Shown here: positions 1,043 to 35,633 of the stretch, one piece after another
How the letters are laid out: every line of letters starts with the position of its first letter
Position numbering within the stretch: the first letter of the stretch is position 1
IMG/VR virus record: IMGVR_UViG_3300038427_000078
From: a virus
Strand: one strand, 5' to 3'
DNA: 64,000 nt
Position numbers and translations under genes: made by a program
The notes under the pieces: model-generated
Database searches by the model: none
What the model saw: only the letters and a program-made list of their open reading frames with translations
Told to the model about the DNA's origin: nothing

Positions 1043-1109
1043 TAAAATCGAGTCCCCTCGCGGAAAATTTTTGCGGGGAATGCTCAGGCGAGATTAGCAT
1101 AATCTTCAC

Positions 1110-1132
1110 GCGCTGGTGATGGAACGGTAGAC
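1110..1132 (+). pseudogene. 5' fragment of a disrupted tRNA-Leu
   Basis: gcgctggtgatggaacggtagac = Leu-type acceptor 5' strand plus D arm; pairs with tcagcgc at 1790-1796. Confidence 0.7.
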
Positions 1133-1180
1133 TTGCTTTGTTTTCCATTCGCATCTGTGCTATAAGTAATAGAAGCATAC

Positions 1181-1265
1181 GTCCGCATGCTGGAACTCGG
1201 TAGACGGGCACGGTTGAGAGCCGTGTGGCCGAAAGGTCGTGTGGGTTCGACTCCCACTGTGGACA
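1181..1265 (+). tRNA. tRNA-Leu(GAG)
   Basis: acceptor gtccgca/tgtggac; cacgg-tt-GAG-ag-ccgtg; long variable arm with GAAA loop. Confidence 0.93.
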
Positions 1266-1267
1266 TC

Positions 1268-1750
1268 ATGGCATTTATCCATCGCTACACATTGGAGATG
1301 TTGGAAGAGGCAGCGGAGCACAGCACTTCGGTCGCTGGTGTCTGTCGTTATCTCAACATCAACAACCCTGGCGGTAGTTCGCAGACGAACATCCGCAATC
1401 GTCTTCGTGACTTCGGCATCGATACCTCACACTTCTTGGGTAAAGCTGCTCGCAAAGGAACACAAGCGAGCAATCGAAAGACGGCGGCAGAGATACTTGT
1501 ACGCCTTCCTTCTGGTGCCTACCGACCAGAAGCAAAGAAACTTCGACGGGCCTTGATCGAACAGGGACGAGAGTATGTCTGTGAGGGTTGCGGCAACAAA
1601 GCGTGGTGGAAAGAAGGCCCATTGACACTTGAAGTAGATCACATCGACGGCGATTGGCACAACAACGAAGAGGACAACCTTCGTTTCTTGTGTCCTAATT
1701 GTCATAGCGTTTACACGTTGCCCGGTGTACCATGTGGTACGGCGGACTAG
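1268..1750 (+). CDS. HNH homing endonuclease
   Basis: CEGC...LEVDHIDGDWHNNEEDNLRFLCPNCH. Confidence 0.9.
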   Translation: MAFIHRYTLEMLEEAAEHSTSVAGVCRYLNINNPGGSSQTNIRNRLRDFGIDTSHFLGKAARKGTQASNRKTAAEILVRLPSGAYRPEAKKLRRALIEQGREYVCEGCGNKAWWKEGPLTLEVDHIDGDWHNNEEDNLRFLCPNCHSVYTLPGVPCGTAD

Positions 1751-1797
1751 GACGTGGTGCCCTTCGGGGCGTGTGGGTTCGAATCCCACTCAGCGCA
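1747..1797 (+). pseudogene. 3' fragment of a disrupted tRNA-Leu(UAG)
   Basis: c-TAG-ga-cgtgg, variable arm gcccttcggggc, T arm gtggg-ttcgaat-cccac, acceptor 3' strand tcagcgc-a. Confidence 0.75.
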
Positions 1798-2070
1798 TAG
1801 GGCCGGTGGTCAGGCGACGGGGTAAGCTCCTGTCGAATGCAGCCGAGTAGGTCGGGGATCCAGGCGCGTCTGGTGAAAGACCCGTATCCCTCTTGAGGGG
1901 TGCCCATCTCAAGCACTTGGTTGCGGAGCGGTCAAGTGGGTAGAGGGCGGAAGCCAGCCTTGAAAGGTTGAGCCGAAAGCTCTAGCTCCAATGTTTCAAC
2001 TCCCGTGTAGTGGTGGAAGTCCACGTCGCGCAAGCGATTGTTACTGATGTGTGTCATGCACGGGAGCCAT

Positions 2071-2146
2071 GCCGCTGTGAAGGGAATTTGGCATACCTCT
2101 CACGCTTAGAACGTGAGGCTTGTGGGTTCGAGTCCCACTGGCGGCA
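2071..2146 (+). tRNA. tRNA-Leu(UAG), short variable loop
   Basis: gccgctg/tggcggc; tcacg-ct-TAG-aa-cgtga. Confidence 0.9.
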
Positions 2147-2164
2147 CTCAGTAGTGAAGTACCT

Positions 2165-2236
2165 GCCTCCGTATGGTTAGTGGTAGACCCTCCGACTTTT
2201 AATCGGGAAGCTGGGGTTCGATTCCCCACGGGGGTA
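2165..2236 (+). tRNA. tRNA-Lys(UUU)
   Basis: gcctccg/cgggggt; ccga-ct-TTT-aa-tcgg. Confidence 0.9.
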
Positions 2237-2387
2237 CTTTTGTGGTGATCGGCTGGGCTTGATCGGCCCGCTGTCCGATGGAAGGTGGTCGTGTGTCCAC
2301 TCTTCGACCCGCGTCAAGTAGGGCCACAACGAAGGGCAAGATACCTCCGTACCGCAGCGCGCCGGGACGATAGGTAACACACAACAT

Positions 2388-2460
2388 GGGCCTGTAGCTC
2401 AAATGGGAGAGCGCCTGCCTTGCAAGCAGGAGGTTGAGGGTTCGATTCCCTCTAGGTCCA
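2388..2460 (+). tRNA. tRNA-Ala(UGC)
   Basis: gggcctg/taggtcc with G3:U70; ct-TGC-aa. Confidence 0.95.
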
Positions 2461-2897: not shown

Positions 2898-2971
2898 CAG
2901 GGTATAGCGCAGTCTGGTAGCGCGCTCCCCTCGGACGGGAGAGGTCGTAGGTTCGAATCCTATTACCCTGA
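2898..2971 (+). tRNA. tRNA-Pro(CGG)
   Basis: cagggta/taccctg; ctccc-ct-CGG-ac-gggag. Confidence 0.95.
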
Positions 2972-3053
2972 TAGCGGCAGGCCATGGCCTGTCTCGAAGA
3001 TCCTCGGTTGAACCGTGAAGCCATAGTTACCACGGGCCGGTACGGATCGAGTT

Positions 3054-3126
3054 GCCGGTCTAGCTCTAATGGTAGAGCGCTTCCGTGGTAAGGAAGAGGT
3101 TCCGAGTTCGAATCTCGGGATCGGCT
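3054..3126 (+). tRNA. tRNA-Thr(GGU)
   Basis: gccggtc/gatcggc; cttcc-gt-GGT-aa-ggaag. Confidence 0.93.
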
Positions 3127-3388
3127 TAGCGGGGTAGACTCCATGCGCAGGGGTCGATGTCGAGGGAGTCATGACCCAAGGCACGCGGGTACCGACAGGC
3201 AAAGCGCCTGCTCGGTCCGTGCCGCACACTCATACCGTGCGCCGGGAAACCGCTAGACTGGCGGGTGTTACCGGATAAGGAGAGGCTAGTCACCGATCCG
3301 AAAAGGGATTGCTCGCACGGTTTTCTAGATTGATCGGTCGGCCTCCGGTAGAGGAGTAGCGGACGGGTCGCCCCTCCACGGAGGGCTT

Positions 3389-3460
3389 GCCAGCAAAGCG
3401 GAAGTGGTGCCGCACCCGTTTCGTAAGCGGGGGAATCGGGTTCAATTCCCGATGCTGGCT
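3389..3460 (+). tRNA. tRNA-Thr(CGU)
   Basis: gccagca/tgctggc; cccgt-tt-CGT-aa-gcggg. Confidence 0.88.
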
Positions 3461-3611
3461 TTGAGGCCGTGACCTCCGGGTAAGAAGCGCGGGGAGCGTC
3501 AGTCTTAGGTTGTCCAGGGTCTAAATTTGCGCCTGGCTGAGCAGCGGAGACTACATAACCGGCTCGCCTCACTTTCGTACTTTTCTTTCGGGTACGACAA
3601 GGTAATGTGTA

Positions 3612-4019
3612 ATGGTATGTGCTACCTGTAAAGAAGAGAAGGACTTGGACGAGTTCCATGCTGGTGCTCGCGTGTGTAAAGGCTGCAAGAAGGATGCCGA
3701 TGCTCGCTCGTTTCAGAAGCATCGGGAGGCTCGTCTAGAAAAGCGCCGACAGGATCGCCTCGCAGCACGCGAATGGTTTGAGTCCTTGAAGGCAGGAAAG
3801 AAGTGTGCCGACTGTGATCTGGATCATCCTCCGTGGAGGATGGATTGGGATCACCTTCCAGGCACAGAAAAGCTCTTTGAGATAGCCGATGTCAGCCACA
3901 TGGCAACGGGAGAGAAGGGCAAGCGGAAGATACTGGACGAGATTGCCAAGTGCGAGCTTGTCTGTGCCAACTGTCATCGAGACAGAACGCACGACCGCCG
4001 ACGGGGAGTGGCCCTGTAA
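3612..4019 (+). CDS. HNH homing endonuclease
   Basis: CxxC pairs; MDWDH...EIAKCELVCANCH. Confidence 0.88.
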   Translation: MVCATCKEEKDLDEFHAGARVCKGCKKDADARSFQKHREARLEKRRQDRLAAREWFESLKAGKKCADCDLDHPPWRMDWDHLPGTEKLFEIADVSHMATGEKGKRKILDEIAKCELVCANCHRDRTHDRRRGVAL

Positions 4020-10299: not shown

Positions 10300-10479
10300 A
10301 TGCCTTACGCAGATAGAGAGAAACAGGCGGCGTATCAACGCGATTGGTACCGACGCCACAAAGAGCAACATATCAACCGTATTCGTAACGAACGTCGTAA
10401 GAGGCGTGAAGTGGTCAACGAATACAAGCTCTCAAGAGGGTGTAACCGATCGCGGGTTCGATTCCCGCATAGTGCTTAG
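10300..10479 (+). pseudogene. truncated HNH gene fused to an orphan tRNA T arm
   Basis: MPYADREKQAAYQRDWY...EYKLSRGC resembles the N-terminus of 8192-8524, then gcggg-ttcgatt-cccgc. Confidence 0.7.
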
Positions 10480-10486
10480 ATCAAAC

Positions 10487-11073
10487 TTCGTATCAGGCGG
10501 TTGCTGCGCTTGAAAGACAGCGTAGAGGAAGTTCGGGGCATGCTGGCAGGGGAAACCTTGTCATCGGCTCAACTACACCGAGTGACACCGGCCCAAAGGA
10601 GGTACGCCCTCGTTGGTGTTCCGGCGCATGCAACTCCAAGTAGAGAACCCTACGGCGAAAGCTATGGGCATATCGGGTTGGAGGCTTAGATGGATGATCG
10701 CCACCAGTTACGACTCAGAGGAGAGACATGAACTACTGTGAAGCGATGGCCTACGTCGCGGGGCTGTTGGAGGGCGAGGGATGCTTCGATTTCGTAGCTC
10801 CCGGCCATCCAAGGATCCGCATGGAGACAACAGATGAAGATGTGGCATACTGGCTTCAACACTTGGTTGAAGGTGGGACAATCACTAATCGTCAGGGCAA
10901 ACGCAGTAATCACAGCGATTCGTTTGTGTGGCAAACGAGCAGGGCTGATGTGGTCAAGAAGGTCTTGACGGCAATCTATCCTTGGACAAGTGCTCGCAGG
11001 CGAGTAAAGATTGATGAACTCATGTCTGCTCTCTGAGCCGTAGTTGGTACAGAACCCCGGCTATCGATACGAA
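10487..11073 (+). ncRNA. rnpB: RNase P RNA (reduced S-domain, no P18) with an ORF inserted in P19
   Basis: P1 ttcgtatc/gatacgaa; P2 ggcggtt/gatcgcc; P3; GAGGAAGTTCGGGGC at 10525; TAGATGGATG; ACAGAACCCCGGCTA at 11049; P4 forms 8 bp with a bulged U. Confidence 0.88.
10728..11036 (+). CDS. single-motif LAGLIDADG homing endonuclease inside the RNase P RNA
   Basis: YVAGLLEGEGCF motif; RBS gaggag. Confidence 0.9.
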   Translation: MNYCEAMAYVAGLLEGEGCFDFVAPGHPRIRMETTDEDVAYWLQHLVEGGTITNRQGKRSNHSDSFVWQTSRADVVKKVLTAIYPWTSARRRVKIDELMSAL

Positions 11074-11114
11074 TATGCCCCTCGGCTCTGTTCAGAACGG
11101 CTTGGGGGCACCAA

Positions 11115-11188
11115 GCCTGTGATGCAGAAATGGTGCTGCGCTCGCCTTGTAAGCGAGAATAGACTCGGTTCGATTCCGAGCATAGGCT
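11115..11188 (+). tRNA. tRNA-Thr(UGU)
   Basis: gcctgtg/cataggc; ctcgc-ct-TGT-aa-gcgag. Confidence 0.88.
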
Positions 11189-11352
11189 CTGACTGCGCTC
11201 TTGCAAGCACCGGGAACCGGCGTGCGGCAGAGCGGCGCGCTGGTCACCCGTGGCTAGTCCTCATTTGCTCAACGCACCCCGGATTAGGGATTGGGCAGGC
11301 TAGTCTAGTGTGAGTACCCACTGATCGCGATGAGCGTGAGGGGAAATCCAAT

Positions 11353-11423
11353 GCGGATGTGGCGTAATGGTAACGTATTTGCCTTCCAAGCAAAGGTTGC
11401 GGGTTCGACTCCCGTCTTCCGCT
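11353..11423 (+). tRNA. tRNA-Gly(UCC)
   Basis: gcggatg/cttccgc; tttgc-ct-TCC-aa-gcaaa. Confidence 0.93.
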
Positions 11424-11768: not shown

Positions 11769-11818
11769 CTCATAACTCACAGGCTCCTTTCGAGCCATTT
11801 CCGGGCGCATAATGCTTG

Positions 11819-12163
11819 ATGGCATACAAGAACAAGGTCGATCAAGCAGCCTCTTCTCGTCGTCATTACCTTCGTAACCAGAAGGCGATGAAGGAGAGGG
11901 CTGAACTCAAGAACCGCGAACGTCATGCAGAATACGCGGAGAAGATCAAGGTTGCGAAGGCTAGACCTTGCGCCGATTGCAACATCGAATACCCTCACTA
12001 CGTCATGGACTTCGATCATGTGCGTGGCAAGAAGGTCGGGAACGTATCGACCATGGCTCATGCCTTGCGACCTTGGAAGCTGATCGAACAAGAGATTGCG
12101 AAGTGCGATGTCGTCTGTTCTAATTGTCATCGAGAGCGTACGTATGTTCGACTCTCCGCATAG
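11819..12163 (+). CDS. HNH homing endonuclease
   Basis: CADC...MDFDHVRG...EIAKCDVVCSNCH. Confidence 0.88.
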   Translation: MAYKNKVDQAASSRRHYLRNQKAMKERAELKNRERHAEYAEKIKVAKARPCADCNIEYPHYVMDFDHVRGKKVGNVSTMAHALRPWKLIEQEIAKCDVVCSNCHRERTYVRLSA

Positions 12164-12390
12164 CGATTTCATCATCCGGGCGCGAAACCTGCTATCATCG
12201 GTAGAGTAATGGTTGGAGACAGACACATGGACAACGGTGGCTATCAATGCTCGACTTCATCTTCCGATACCTGTGTCGGCGCTTCGGCCATCGCTGGATT
12301 GCCGAGGAAACCTACGCTGGCGAGTGGTGGGACATCTGCGCCCGCTGCCACGCTGTGCGCAAACACCAACCGGGGAGAAATTGAAGGTCC

Positions 12391-16886: not shown

Positions 16887-17399
16887 ATGCCCCGTGATCG
16901 TATCAGACAAGAGTATTGCGCCAAGGGACATCTGCTTTCCGAGACAGCCCATGTCCGCGAGAACGGCAAGCGTAGCTGTAGCGTATGTCAGAAAGAACGA
17001 CGAGAGGAACTAAAGGAACGTCCCAAGATTTTCCTAGCAGAAAAGCGATGCGGTCGTTGCGAGGTTCCGAAGCCCCTGAACGAGTTCTATCGTGATGCTT
17101 CCAAGCCTGACGGCGTTGGTTATTACTGCAAGGTGTGTGAACGATGGATCAAACTGCTCTACAACTACGGTGTGACCGAGGAGGAATACAACGCCCTTTA
17201 CGCGAAACAAGGTGGGTGTTGCGCCATCTGTGGGCACTGTCCTGTCCCGCCAGAACCGTTCTTGGTAGTGGATCACGTTCACGATACCGAGGTCGTGCGC
17301 GGACTGCTATGCGGAACCTGCAACACAGGACTTGGGATGTTGAAAGAGAACCCCGAGATTGTCGAGAAGGCATTGGAGTATCTGTATGAAGCTGCTTGA
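16887..17399 (+). CDS. endonuclease VII-like homing endonuclease
   Basis: QGGCCAIC...VVDHVH...VRGLLCGTCNTGLG. Confidence 0.9.
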   Translation: MPRDRIRQEYCAKGHLLSETAHVRENGKRSCSVCQKERREELKERPKIFLAEKRCGRCEVPKPLNEFYRDASKPDGVGYYCKVCERWIKLLYNYGVTEEEYNALYAKQGGCCAICGHCPVPPEPFLVVDHVHDTEVVRGLLCGTCNTGLGMLKENPEIVEKALEYLYEAA

Positions 17400-19527
17400 C
17401 CAGGTGGAAAATTCCCTAGCGCCTAAGCACATCAGCATCATTGAGTTCGCTGAATCGTCAGACTACTGCGGCAAGACCCTCTATCCTCGGCAGGCCGTTC
17501 TTCTCAAGCTGCTCAACCTTGAGGAGCTAACAGGCGAGGAGGAGGACGTACTCGACTACTGGCTCAAGGGCGGGCGTAACGGTACCGAGATTGAGATTTC
17601 GCCCAATGTGCGCGAGCGTGTCGAATGGCTCCGCGAGAACGACTACCCGCACTTCCGCGAGGCTATCCTCGTCGGGGGTCGCCGTAGCTCCAAGGGATTC
17701 TGCACCGGCATCCAGATGGCGTACGTCATGTGGAACTGCTTGCAGTTGCAGGATCCTGGCGCGTACTACGGCATCGACCCGGAGAAGGAAATCTACTTCT
17801 CCTGTGTCGCCGGTTCCGAGGAACAGGCGAAGGAGTTCCAGTACGCCGACTTTTCGTCAACCGTGACGACGTGCAAGTCCTTCGACCCGTACATCATCAA
17901 GTCCCTAGAGACTGAGCTTCGCATCGCCACCGAGACTGACCTCCGTCGCATTCACACGGAGAAGGCCAAGGGGAACCGCATCCAGAAGGACATCGCTCGA
18001 CTTCGAGGCAAGGCTCTTGCCGCGAACGCCGGTACGCTGCGTGGATCAGCTACCATGGCTATCTGCATAGACGAGATGGCGCACATGATCCCCGGTGAGT
18101 CGAAGGCTGCCGCTGATCAGGTCTACAACGCCGCCGACCCGTCCCTCGACCAGTTCGGCGTAGACGGCATGATGTTCTGCAACTCAAGCCCGTACTCCAA
18201 GGTGGGTATGTTCTTCGACCGCTTCGAAGCGGCAAAGGTGAAGTTCGATCCTGACCGTCCGCTAGATGACGTTGTAGTCGTGGGTGAGGAGGGTGACATC
18301 GATATTCATGAACTCAATGGCGACCCGCGTATCTTCACCTTGCAGTTCGCGTCATGGTCGCTCTTCGAGGGTTACCAGAAGTCGAAGCACGCCAAGCGCC
18401 TCAAATGGACCCTCATGGCTTGCCCGGAGTGGGACGAGGACGAGAAGAACGAGGACGGCACTCCGTACTGGAACGACAAAGACATCACCGCGATCAAGGC
18501 CGCACGTTCCAAGGAGAAACAGAACCCGGAGACATACAAAGTCGAGCGTCGTGGCAAATTCGCAGAGGTCACCGAAGCGTACATCCCAGGTGGCGTCGTG
18601 GACAAAATGTTCGCGGGCCTCCCTATCGAATGGGTATCGAAGATGAACCCACGCACGCATGAGCAGGGACCGCTCGAACCTGTGTACGCGGAGTTGGCAA
18701 CGAATGACATGGGCCGCGTGGGTGAGTACGGCAGGCACAAGTTCCACATCGATCCGTCATCCACCACCGCTGGATTCGGCTTCGCCATCGCGCATCCGGA
18801 GAACATCGTCAACGGGGCCACAATGGTCGAGGAGGAACACGTTGTCTTCGATGTCATCCAGCGCTGGCAGCCGCAGCACTTCGCGGGCAAAGTCATCGAC
18901 TGGCACATCGTGCTCCCTGAACTCGTAGGCTTCGCGGAACTCTTCCGCCCGTTCGAGATTACCTTCGGCCAGCATGAGTCGCTACAGGCGATGCAGGAAC
19001 TCGATGAAAAACTCCGCCAGAAAAACTACGGCACGCGCATCTTCCAGTCCAAAGAGACAGCGGAGCTAAACTGGAAGCGTTGGGAGGTCACCAAGACCTC
19101 GATGTACTCTGGCTACGTCCACGCGCCGAAAGACACCGAGGATGCCAAGTTCGCTGCTCTTGAGTTGAAGTTCTTGCAGAAGCAGGCAGGCGCAGGGCGC
19201 TGGCCTCGCATCGACAAGCAGGAAATGGGTCCGGTCCAGACGAAGGATATGGCGGACTGTATAGCCGAGTGTGTGTCCACATTGATAGGCAATCAGATAG
19301 CGAACCGCACCCGTGACCGATTGACCCACTCGGCCCTATTGGGCGGCTCTCCGGGCGGCTACCAGATCGGCCTCGGCAGCAACCCAGCAGTGGGCGGAGC
19401 CGGTCCTCCGAACATCTCCGAGTATTACTCCCGCCGTGATGAGAAGATCGGCGGCGGAGGCAATCCGGCCCGAGGAGTGCTGGGAGGCGGCAGGAACCGC
19501 CGCAACCGGAACAAGGCAAGATGGTAA
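17386..19527 (+). CDS. terL: terminase large subunit
   Basis: Walker A VGGRRSSKG, Walker B ICIDEMAH, NSSP coupling motif, nuclease HIDPS...KDMADC. Confidence 0.88.
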   Translation: MKLLDQVENSLAPKHISIIEFAESSDYCGKTLYPRQAVLLKLLNLEELTGEEEDVLDYWLKGGRNGTEIEISPNVRERVEWLRENDYPHFREAILVGGRRSSKGFCTGIQMAYVMWNCLQLQDPGAYYGIDPEKEIYFSCVAGSEEQAKEFQYADFSSTVTTCKSFDPYIIKSLETELRIATETDLRRIHTEKAKGNRIQKDIARLRGKALAANAGTLRGSATMAICIDEMAHMIPGESKAAADQVYNAADPSLDQFGVDGMMFCNSSPYSKVGMFFDRFEAAKVKFDPDRPLDDVVVVGEEGDIDIHELNGDPRIFTLQFASWSLFEGYQKSKHAKRLKWTLMACPEWDEDEKNEDGTPYWNDKDITAIKAARSKEKQNPETYKVERRGKFAEVTEAYIPGGVVDKMFAGLPIEWVSKMNPRTHEQGPLEPVYAELATNDMGRVGEYGRHKFHIDPSSTTAGFGFAIAHPENIVNGATMVEEEHVVFDVIQRWQPQHFAGKVIDWHIVLPELVGFAELFRPFEITFGQHESLQAMQELDEKLRQKNYGTRIFQSKETAELNWKRWEVTKTSMYSGYVHAPKDTEDAKFAALELKFLQKQAGAGRWPRIDKQEMGPVQTKDMADCIAECVSTLIGNQIANRTRDRLTHSALLGGSPGGYQIGLGSNPAVGGAGPPNISEYYSRRDEKIGGGGNPARGVLGGGRNRRNRNKARW

Positions 19528-35114: not shown

Positions 35115-35633
35115 ATGGATAGCTTATGTGAGTGTGGTTGTGGGAAAATGGCTCCTATCGCAACCAAGACAAACGTTTCAAGGGGTCATGTCAAAGGACA
35201 ACCTGTGCGATTCATTCGCGGACATTACAAAGGCGGTAGTCCAGGCCGTCGTGTGCCAATTTGGGATATTAGCGAAGATGGGCGTATGGCGACGGGGGAA
35301 TGTAAGCGGCATGGCATTGGAAAGTTCGTTCTTCGAGGCGATGGGACAATGCGTTATCGTTGCCAATCTTGCGCTAGCATGCACGCTCGCAATTGGAATA
35401 AACGACGTAAGGAAACGCTTGTCAAGGAGCATGGGGGCAAGTGTGTTATTTGCGGATACGATAGATACCTGGGCGCTTTTCATTTCCACCATCGGGATCG
35501 TACGACAAAGGAGTTTCATGTGAATCAACATGGACCTGGAATTGAGGCAGCGCGGGTAGAGGCAAAGAAGTGTATTCTGCTCTGTGGCAACTGTCATTCC
35601 GAGGTTGAGGGTGGGTTCAGTGAGCTTCCGTAA
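35115..35633 (+). CDS. HNH homing endonuclease
   Basis: CECGCG N-terminus; FHFHH...KKCILLCGNCH; lower GC than flanks. Confidence 0.88.
   Translation: MDSLCECGCGKMAPIATKTNVSRGHVKGQPVRFIRGHYKGGSPGRRVPIWDISEDGRMATGECKRHGIGKFVLRGDGTMRYRCQSCASMHARNWNKRRKETLVKEHGGKCVICGYDRYLGAFHFHHRDRTTKEFHVNQHGPGIEAARVEAKKCILLCGNCHSEVEGGFSELP

Follow-up and report, generated by a model that had tools for sequence, protein, structure and literature searches.

Can a homing endonuclease gene reside inside the gene of a ribozyme? Such genes are known from introns, inteins and ribosomal RNA (rRNA) insertions, and as free-standing genes in phages. The question is raised by positions 10487–11073 of the IMG/VR virus record IMGVR_UViG_3300038427_000078, a stretch of 64,000 nucleotides (nt) that is referred to as the window throughout. 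An initial annotation, made from the letters alone, described this interval as a phage gene for RNase P RNA (rnpB) in which the P19 helix is opened by an open reading frame (ORF) for a LAGLIDADG protein. Our analysis leads to a closely related reading, to which we assign a probability of roughly 0.78: a reduced, bacterial-type rnpB of a phage carries a selfish LAGLIDADG nuclease gene in an expanded P19, and the nuclease homes at the rnpB 3' end. Below, the RNA gene, the insert and the relatives of both are described, before alternative explanations are weighed.

The rnpB-like gene and its insert

The conserved regions (CR) CR-I, CR-IV and CR-V follow one another in the expected order (Table 1), and a profile of related phage loci (see below) matches at these places, including a weak match at 10684–10700 in the CR-IV region. 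The elements that the initial annotation had placed at 10525, 10687–10702 and 11049 agree letter for letter with the sequence, and its P1 and P4 pairings are likewise borne out. P1 is complementary at all eight positions, and P4 forms between 10530–10538 and 11055–11062 with U10532 bulged, giving the pseudoknot between CR-I and CR-V; P2 and P3 pair as well. Within the region bounded by P5, the first of the three hairpins carries a GAAA loop. The GGU in the loop of the P15/P16-like arm is presumably the motif that pairs with the 3'-CCA of tRNA in bacterial RNase P. The gene measures 587 nt with its insert and about 240–280 nt without it. Neither a sigma-70-like promoter nor an intrinsic terminator was found adjoining the RNA.

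Table 1 Features of the rnpB-like gene and its insert in the window, in order of position (MFE, minimum free energy; RBS, ribosome-binding site)
Feature	Position	Strand	Basis and remarks
Phage rnpB-like gene including the 346-nt P19 insert	10487–11073	+	CR elements, helices, profile matches at both ends, blastn to L033
P1, 5' strand	10487–10494	+	TTCGTATC; 8/8 complementary to 11066–11073
P2, 5' strand	10496–10502	+	GGCGGTT; partner GATCGCC at 10696–10702; 7/7 pairs, two of them G-U
P3 hairpin	10504–10525	+	CTGCGCT / AGCGTAG; present in MFE fold
CR-I and P4, 5' strand	10525–10539	+	GAGGAAGTTCGGGGC; U bulged at 10532; read from sequence
P5 (halves of a GCATGC palindrome) around three hairpins	10539–10631	+	MFE fold; much reduced specificity-domain region
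P15/P16-like arm	10635–10683	+	Loop CGGGTTGG (GGU); block CGGGT(T/A)GG kept in relatives
CR-IV and P2, 3' strand	10687–10702	+	TAGATGGATGATCGCC; CR-IV is TAGATGGATGA, 10687–10697; AGA..AT block invariant in family
Expanded P19 stem, 5' arm	10703–10731	+	Core 10703–10720; extension over RBS (about 10718–10723) and ATG at 10728–10730
LAGLIDADG homing endonuclease gene, single-domain, 102 aa	10728–11036	+	ORF, fold, homologs
Expanded P19 stem, 3' arm	11020–11048	+	Core 11031–11048; contains TGA stop at 11034–11036
CR-V and P4, 3' strand	11049–11063	+	ACAGAACCCCGGCTA; family motif ACAGAACCCCGGCT
P1, 3' strand	11066–11073	+	GATACGAA; partner of 10487–10494

The most informative comparison is with L033, a syntenic viral locus that lacks the homing endonuclease gene. 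By blastn, the window RNA is collinear with that of L033, which in turn matches the Rfam family RF00011 over its full length. The 5' part of the two RNAs is 79% identical (E 7e-13), and the P15 region matches again at 10628–10678 (E 9e-5). The order of the matches is kept throughout, from the RNA 5' part over the P15 region to the downstream tRNA-Thr gene and a small basic ORF. Sequence comparison shows the P3 hairpin of L033 to be the same but for one T-A pair exchanged for A-T, and the first two specificity-domain hairpins are common to both RNAs with compensatory changes. L033 also holds an oddity of its own (about 12100–12330, minus strand): some 200 extra nt in the specificity-domain region, with an ORF of about 60 codons (ATGTCGTATAAAACG...).

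The insert comprises 346 nt between the 3' strand of P2 (ending at 10702) and CR-V (starting at 11049). In the Rfam RF00011 alignment of L033, a 33-nt hairpin at exactly this point corresponds to the P19 of type B RNA, which upholds the placement in P19 by the initial annotation. Among insert-less relatives, the site holds a short hairpin in seven and is hairpin-free, with 4–7 nt only, in nine. Judged from these alignments, P19 is an optional element of this phage RNase P family.

The insert is closed by an inverted repeat (10703–10731 and 11020–11048) with arms of 29 nt and 79% complementarity. The flanking stem noted in the initial annotation is thus real and even longer than claimed. Its core is interrupted by a single mismatch, A10713/C11038, and is otherwise continuous; in the extended stem, GACATGA, which includes the start codon, pairs with TCATGTC near the end of the ORF. 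The duplex energy of the flanks amounts to -36.4 kcal/mol compared to -12.6 ± 3.1 kcal/mol for shuffled sequences, a value reached by none of 300 shuffles, and the stem is also present in the MFE fold of the whole 587-nt RNA. The initial annotation had the RBS abut the 5' strand and the stop codon lie in the 3' strand; a GGAG Shine-Dalgarno sequence overlaps the end of the 5' arm, and the TGA stop is indeed in the 3' arm. A second nested locus, L069, has a moderate flanking stem (-21 kcal/mol, reached by 3/300 shuffles), again with the stop codon in the 3' arm.

Related phage loci

Relatives of the RNA were fished from viral contigs with the 15-mer of the window CR-I as bait, which gave 67 loci. 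Seventeen of them also have ACAGAACCCCGGCT on the same strand, 170–415 nt downstream of CR-I. All eight fished loci that were tested show full-length matches to RF00010 with E values from 4e-18 to 0.055, every one of them below the Rfam threshold; further matches were obtained for L068 (E 5e-14), L033 (RF00011, E 1.6e-7) and L070 (E 3.6e-7). Most relatives with RNase P matches sit in tRNA arrays. Insert-less relatives of the kind that the initial annotation had suggested looking for therefore exist, the syntenic L033 among them.

A family profile was built from 14 insert-less relatives and searched over the whole 64-kb window (the family alignments have 526 and 399 columns). Its two best matches, at 10511–10561 (E 7e-6) and 11043–11071 (E 1e-4), are collinear and lie at the two ends of the gene. 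Profile positions 272 to 274 correspond to window positions 10700 to 11043, i.e. the insert falls between them. The helices are conserved as pairings rather than as letters. P2 has seven of seven pairs in 15 of 18 members, in many different sequences, and P1 has seven of seven pairs in 12 of 18, again with differing sequences, both at a fixed place relative to the conserved blocks. P4 covaries, as seen in GUUCGGGG/CCCCGGC (window), GUUCAGGG/CCCUGGC (L080), GGUCGGG/CCCGCC (L069) and AGUCCGG/CCGGCU (L068). Taken together, these comparisons support the assignment of the window RNA to a family of phage RNase P-like RNAs.

The register of P4 deserves a remark of its own. Compared to the E. coli-type helix GUCCGGG/CCCGGC, the family form GUUCGGGG/CCCCGGC has one pair more above the bulged U and one fewer below it; in L068 and L069, P4 is in the ordinary register.

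Other searches delimit the family. With a 19-mer around CR-I, eight loci were found in metagenome contigs, of which six were chance matches, one was a duplicate of L022 and one was a new relative (L078). A 20-mer taken from the 3' terminus of the window RNA was without an exact match in viral contigs. Neither blastn nor megablast of the RNA with its surroundings, or of two relatives, gave a match in 50,697 phage records, and RF00010 had no match in Mycobacterium phage YemiJoy2021 or Gordonia phage Pupper.

Nucleases of another kind also occur at genes of this family. In L024 (about 1100–2400, minus strand) and L026 (about 2960–3860, plus strand), an HNH-type ORF follows the first ~60 nt of a phage rnpB. 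After the ORF comes a diverged second copy of P2-P3-CR-I, which leads on to an RNase P RNA that is complete. Here it is the 5' end of such a gene that is affected, and the nuclease belongs to another family.

The LAGLIDADG nuclease

The ORF fills 309 of the 346 nt of the insert and leaves about 37 nt non-coding. Its product matches phrog_5046 (E 6e-13), and the nearest relatives are proteins of 100–117 aa with 44–60% identity. Homologs at 44–49% identity pass the Pfam cut-offs of LAGLIDADG_1 or LAGLIDADG_3; scores of 28.7, 23.9 and 32.7 bits were obtained for P0003 (49%) and P0005 (47%). Invariant in the clade are the stretch AGLLEGEGCF (residues 11–20), with an acidic residue at the end of helix 1, as well as D36, D38 and R90-R91. 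A search with the clade profile collected 19505 proteins, among which two-domain LAGLIDADG proteins predominate. The locus search with the single protein as query returned no related loci.

The AlphaFold2 model has a predicted local distance difference test (pLDDT) score of 97.5 and an alpha-beta-beta-alpha-beta-beta-alpha fold. Foldseek relates it to I-CvuI, I-CreI and I-AniI (E about 1e-5, template modelling (TM) score 0.75–0.78). The best matches include the homodimeric I-CvuI, I-CreI, I-MsoI and I-CeuI, and the bI3 maturase is among the structural neighbours. Thus, the claim that the gap in the RNA gene holds a complete LAGLIDADG ORF of 102 aa is sustained by the ORF, the fold, the clade motif and the passing homologs.

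For the homodimer, the prediction scores 0.85, as compared to 0.00 for the best of three controls. Among proteins with solved structures, 20 of 30 same-chain pairs and one of 23 single chains reach the mark used. The runs have at least 93% of their contacts in common, the pLDDT of the partner is at least 91, and the predicted interface runs through the first helix. It should be noted that dimers of the I-CreI type are already solved, so that the pass may reflect the predictor's memory of those structures and is to be taken as likeness rather than independent proof.

Position of related nuclease genes

The relatives of the nuclease are of particular interest for where they sit. In the window (protein P0001), the gene is nested in P19 on the same strand as the RNA, and the same nesting in P19 is found in L069 (P0003, 49% identity to the window protein) and L080 (P0005, 47%). 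In L068 (P0002, 60%), the gene lies 12 nt downstream of an intact rnpB on the same strand. Three further genes are convergent with rnpB: in L070 (P0006, 44%) the nuclease at 380–724 overlaps rnpB at 704–980 at its 3' end, in L081 (P0145) the nuclease at 1313–1648 overlaps rnpB at 1633–1760 at its 3' end, and in L079 (P0004, 48%) the nuclease at 556–906 faces antisense CR-IV and CR-V motifs that were recognised by eye. L082 (P0007, 32%) is a short contig in which no rnpB is visible. The rnpB 3' end is thus the site of the nuclease in seven of eight readable contexts (three in P19, one just downstream, three convergent), and nesting in P19 is one of three positions that this clade takes there.

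In the convergent loci L070, L081 and L079, the nuclease ORF runs antisense to the 3' end of the RNA gene over its last 16–21 nt (a longer stretch in L079). As the ORF ends antisense to rnpB, the C-terminal residues of these proteins are encoded by the complement of CR-V or P1.

An rnpB followed by tRNA-Thr(UGU) is common to the window, L080, L068 and L033; the nuclease gene is nested in P19 in the first two, lies downstream in L068 and is missing from L033. A mobile endonuclease gene would be expected to show such polymorphism of presence, absence and position at a syntenic rnpB. The nucleases linked to rnpB group together as a single clade (support 85/87), whose inner branching order the tree does not resolve. 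More distant relatives (80 viral, 9 bacterial) are free-standing, some of them in tRNA arrays, and none lies beside rnpB. The overall distribution fits a mobile endonuclease that would target the 3' part of rnpB.

Two of the bacterial loci, L169 and L170, come from metagenome-assembled genomes of Eremiobacterota / Vulcanimicrobiota. They carry nucleases of 27–30% identity inside 12-gene tRNA arrays, a placement that echoes the tie between this nuclease family and tRNA gene clusters.

Proposed mechanism and alternatives

Based on these data, the following course of events is proposed. In co-infecting relatives, the homodimer would cut rnpB alleles that lack the nuclease gene, at some point within the conserved CR-IV/P2/CR-V stretch, and the nuclease gene would be copied into the cut allele during double-strand-break repair. 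Insertion into P19 would split or displace the target site at little cost to the ribozyme; since members of the family can do without this helix, an insert would be tolerated there. The ribozyme itself would use the RnpA of the host. For the suggestion in the initial annotation that the nuclease may cut host rnpB, the analysis turned up no support.

Two fates of the transcript can be envisaged. The ORF may be kept as a looped-out extension of P19, or a double-strand RNase of the host may cut the 18+7-bp stem, leaving a two-piece ribozyme whose parts would be joined by P1, P2, P4 and the stem. Cutting without religation and a one-piece RNA serving as enzyme and mRNA are equally possible. Since the stem buries the RBS and the start codon, translation should stay low in the folded RNA. 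The more specific idea that the 587-nt transcript stays whole and is both active RNase P and nuclease mRNA, with folding of the P19 stem picking the role, is put forward tentatively and looks rather doubtful. If true, a virus would provide a natural example of a bifunctional RNA that is ribozyme and mRNA in one.

Several observations weigh against the reading of the locus as an active phage rnpB with a homing gene in P19. On the RNA side, Rfam gave no RNase P match for the whole window at the gathering threshold, none for 10400–11250 at E ≤ 10 with the insert present, and none for the 5' piece 10484–10722 alone in truncated mode; the covariance-model search with the insert left in, which the initial annotation had named as a check, hence came out negative. 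The relatives themselves score 19–67 bits against gathering cut-offs of 97–100. Agreement in CR-I across the family is circular, as the window CR-I 15-mer served as bait, while the rest of the agreement is not. Canonical P10–P12 and CR-II/CR-III are not recognisable between the P5 halves of the window, where three short hairpins are all there is. With its specificity domain reduced and P18 missing, the window RNA may have little enzymatic activity or none. No RnpA gene (PF00825) turned up among five rnpB-carrying viral records, two of them complete, so the protein partner would have to be the host's. On the side of the insert, the window protein reaches 19.2 bits with Pfam LAGLIDADG_3 (PF14528), under the cut-off of 22.5. 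The flanking stem of L080 is at chance level (133/300 shuffles); being strong in the window, moderate in L069 and chance-level in L080, the stem is not a conserved feature, and in this respect the initial annotation does not hold. Finally, no joint skipping the insert was found in the contigs of four DNA runs that cover both junctions, these contigs being of low depth and fragmented. As an insert-less allele of this phage was not seen in the four runs, recent mobility is undocumented.

How do other explanations fare against the same data? That the resemblance to RNase P RNA arose by chance can be practically dismissed. The lack of an Rfam match for the window would agree with it, yet three conserved blocks follow the proper order, four helices are correctly placed, the collinear L033 matches RF00011, the helices covary family-wide, and the gene lies in the context of a tRNA array and a CCA-adding enzyme. 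It is a different matter whether the RNA is still a ribozyme. If insertion or earlier reduction had killed it, the rnpB-like gene would be a relic and the nuclease gene alone functional. This would account for the absence of an Rfam match to the window RNA or its 5' piece, and for the window copy being the most reduced of its subgroup, without the P18-like and additional hairpins that are retained in L033 and L080. Still, we regard it as unlikely: CR-I, CR-IV and CR-V are letter-perfect compared to the family, pairing is intact in P1 to P4, and the insert occupies the one helix that is absent from half of the family. Moreover, two lineages with nucleases 47–49% identical to that of the window show the same nesting with an intact core, which argues for long coexistence of insert and rnpB.

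The remaining alternatives concern the insert. LAGLIDADG genes usually reside in group I introns or archaeal rRNA introns, and one might expect an intron here that is spliced and religated, be it a group I, a group II or a bulge-helix-bulge intron. Among the rRNA insertions in bacteria of the candidate phyla radiation (CPR), more than half are indeed group-I-like (PMC11270868). In the window, however, the ORF takes up 309 of the 346 nt, no Rfam intron family matches the insert region at E ≤ 10, and a group I core (P3–P9) was not found. With about 37 non-coding nt and no intron match, a group I intron is rejected. The archaeal bulge-helix-bulge type is rejected as well, because the stem has a single A/C mismatch instead of two 3-nt bulges around a 4-bp helix; the archaeal splicing endonuclease is not known from bacteria. 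Lacking an intron core or match and room for one in its ~37 non-coding nt, the insert would not be self-spliced, in line with the non-splicing host that had been suggested at the outset, and an intron of any type is highly improbable.

A role of the LAGLIDADG protein as a maturase-like, RNA-binding cofactor of the reduced RNase P RNA, no longer or not only a homing nuclease, would tie in with the linkage of the clade to rnpB in seven of eight contexts, with phage records that lack RnpA, and with structural neighbours that include the bifunctional I-AniI and the bI3 maturase. The protein retains the metal-binding acidic residue (LLEGEG) and the other clade-invariant residues, though, and its wider relatives are free-standing phage genes elsewhere. 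The variable position of the gene, convergent and overlapping placements included, and its absence from the syntenic L033 are the pattern of a mobile gene and not of a fixed subunit, which makes the cofactor improbable.

Comparison with known systems

The window RNA shares CR-I, CR-IV, CR-V, P1–P5 and the GGU loop of P15 with bacterial RNase P RNA (RF00010 for type A, RF00011 for type B), and like it has an optional hairpin between the P2 3' strand and CR-V. It differs in being phage-encoded, in its very reduced specificity domain without P18, in a P4 with one additional pair and the bulged U moved by one place, and in a P19 of 346 nt that encodes a protein; its scores are under the Rfam thresholds.

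The closest published system is that of the rRNA insertion sequences of CPR bacteria, where single-domain LAGLIDADG genes occupy stem-loops, either at the tip or at the base (Tsurumaki et al. 2024, PMC11270868). I-ShaI, which is encoded in one such insert, dimerises and cleaves the insert-less site. In both cases, a LAGLIDADG gene is lodged in a stem-loop of an essential structural RNA gene. The CPR inserts differ from that of the window in their rRNA host, in their occurrence in cellular bacteria and in their larger proteins (about 180–210 aa), as opposed to RNase P RNA, a phage, 102 aa and no intron core. RNase P goes unmentioned in that paper (PMC11270868). A further parallel is intronless homing and the free-standing homing endonucleases of phage tRNA regions, such as T4 SegB (PMC2330249): there, too, a phage nuclease gene lies in a block of genes for tRNA processing, is inherited with flanking markers and is flexible in its position relative to the target. 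SegB, a GIY-YIG enzyme encoded between tRNA genes, is resembled by the clade members L068, L070 and L081, whereas in the window a LAGLIDADG gene is nested in a ribozyme gene.

With I-CreI, I-CvuI and I-MsoI the window protein shares the fold (TM about 0.77), a single motif and, by prediction, dimerisation via the first helix. These enzymes have about 150–165 aa compared to 102 aa, with 13–14% identity, and their genes lie in group I introns of organellar rRNA genes, unlike the window gene. Finally, the 23S rRNA intervening sequences of Salmonella and others are removed by RNase III without religation and usually encode no protein. Like the window insert, they are located at a peripheral helix of an essential RNA and enclosed by a long stem, and cutting would leave a working RNA in pieces; for the window stem, such cutting is a proposal.

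In the open-access literature, no paper was found that describes an RNase P RNA encoded by a phage or an rnpB with an endonuclease gene inside it, which agrees with the initial annotation, whose author was not aware of a description of the arrangement. It is a form of homing endonuclease gene nested within a structural RNA gene; the host here is the RNase P RNA of a phage, and P19 holds the LAGLIDADG enzyme. At 102 aa, the enzyme would rank among the smallest LAGLIDADG nucleases. Should the RNA be active, large phages would bring their own ribozyme for tRNA 5'-end maturation beside tRNAs, transfer-messenger RNA (tmRNA) and CCA-adding enzyme; a near-minimal natural RNase P would work despite an unrelated, protein-coding passenger of 346 nt in P19; and rnpB would be a battleground for the selfish nucleases of competing phages. 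Inserts and reduced architecture hide such rnpB genes from standard annotation.

Genomic context

Genes for terminase, portal, RIIA, tail fibre and CCA-adding enzyme identify the window as phage DNA, and its portal shares ~40% identity with the portals of cluster C mycobacteriophages and of Gordonia phage Pupper. The window belongs to an uncultured actinophage-like myovirus from peat; its DNA is present in 24 DNA runs from peat and wetland, and no RNA run was among those listed with it. The RNA gene lies within a plus-strand array that comprises 29 tRNA genes and one tmRNA gene, with tRNA-Arg upstream and tRNA-Thr(UGU) 42 nt downstream. An ORF of 720 aa at 35584–37746 matches tRNA nucleotidyltransferase (the CCA-adding enzyme) over its C-terminal 430 residues (phrog_2244, E 4e-62). 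Together, the tRNAs, tmRNA, rnpB and CCA-adding enzyme amount to a broad tRNA maturation kit of the phage.

Further nuclease-type genes lie close by. An intact HNH endonuclease gene at 11816–12163 (phrog_3106, E 4e-23) is located in the tRNA array and is the third nuclease-type gene within 2 kb. A 59-aa ORF at 10300–10479 weakly resembles the N-terminal half of this HNH protein (27% identity, E 0.001) and ends before the HNH motif. Its end overlaps a tRNA-like T-arm and acceptor 3' strand (10451–10468) that have no 5' half. From its sequence, 10300–10479 looks like a decayed HNH homing gene beside a tRNA fragment, directly upstream of rnpB.

Downstream of rnpB, between tRNA-Thr and tRNA-Gly, a non-coding block at 11273–11356 has a conserved counterpart in L033 (74% over 88 nt, E 9e-5), which is placed differently relative to the small basic ORF; this block may be another small RNA. 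A tRNA-like gene of 96 nt at 2745–2840 has an anticodon left unassigned by ARAGORN ('ga') and scores 57.5 bits with the Rfam tRNA model, and it may contain an insertion in or near the anticodon loop. Similarly, the ORF of the terminase large subunit (17359–19527, 722 aa) matches profile positions 267–585 of 807 across residues 84–635, and may carry an insertion.

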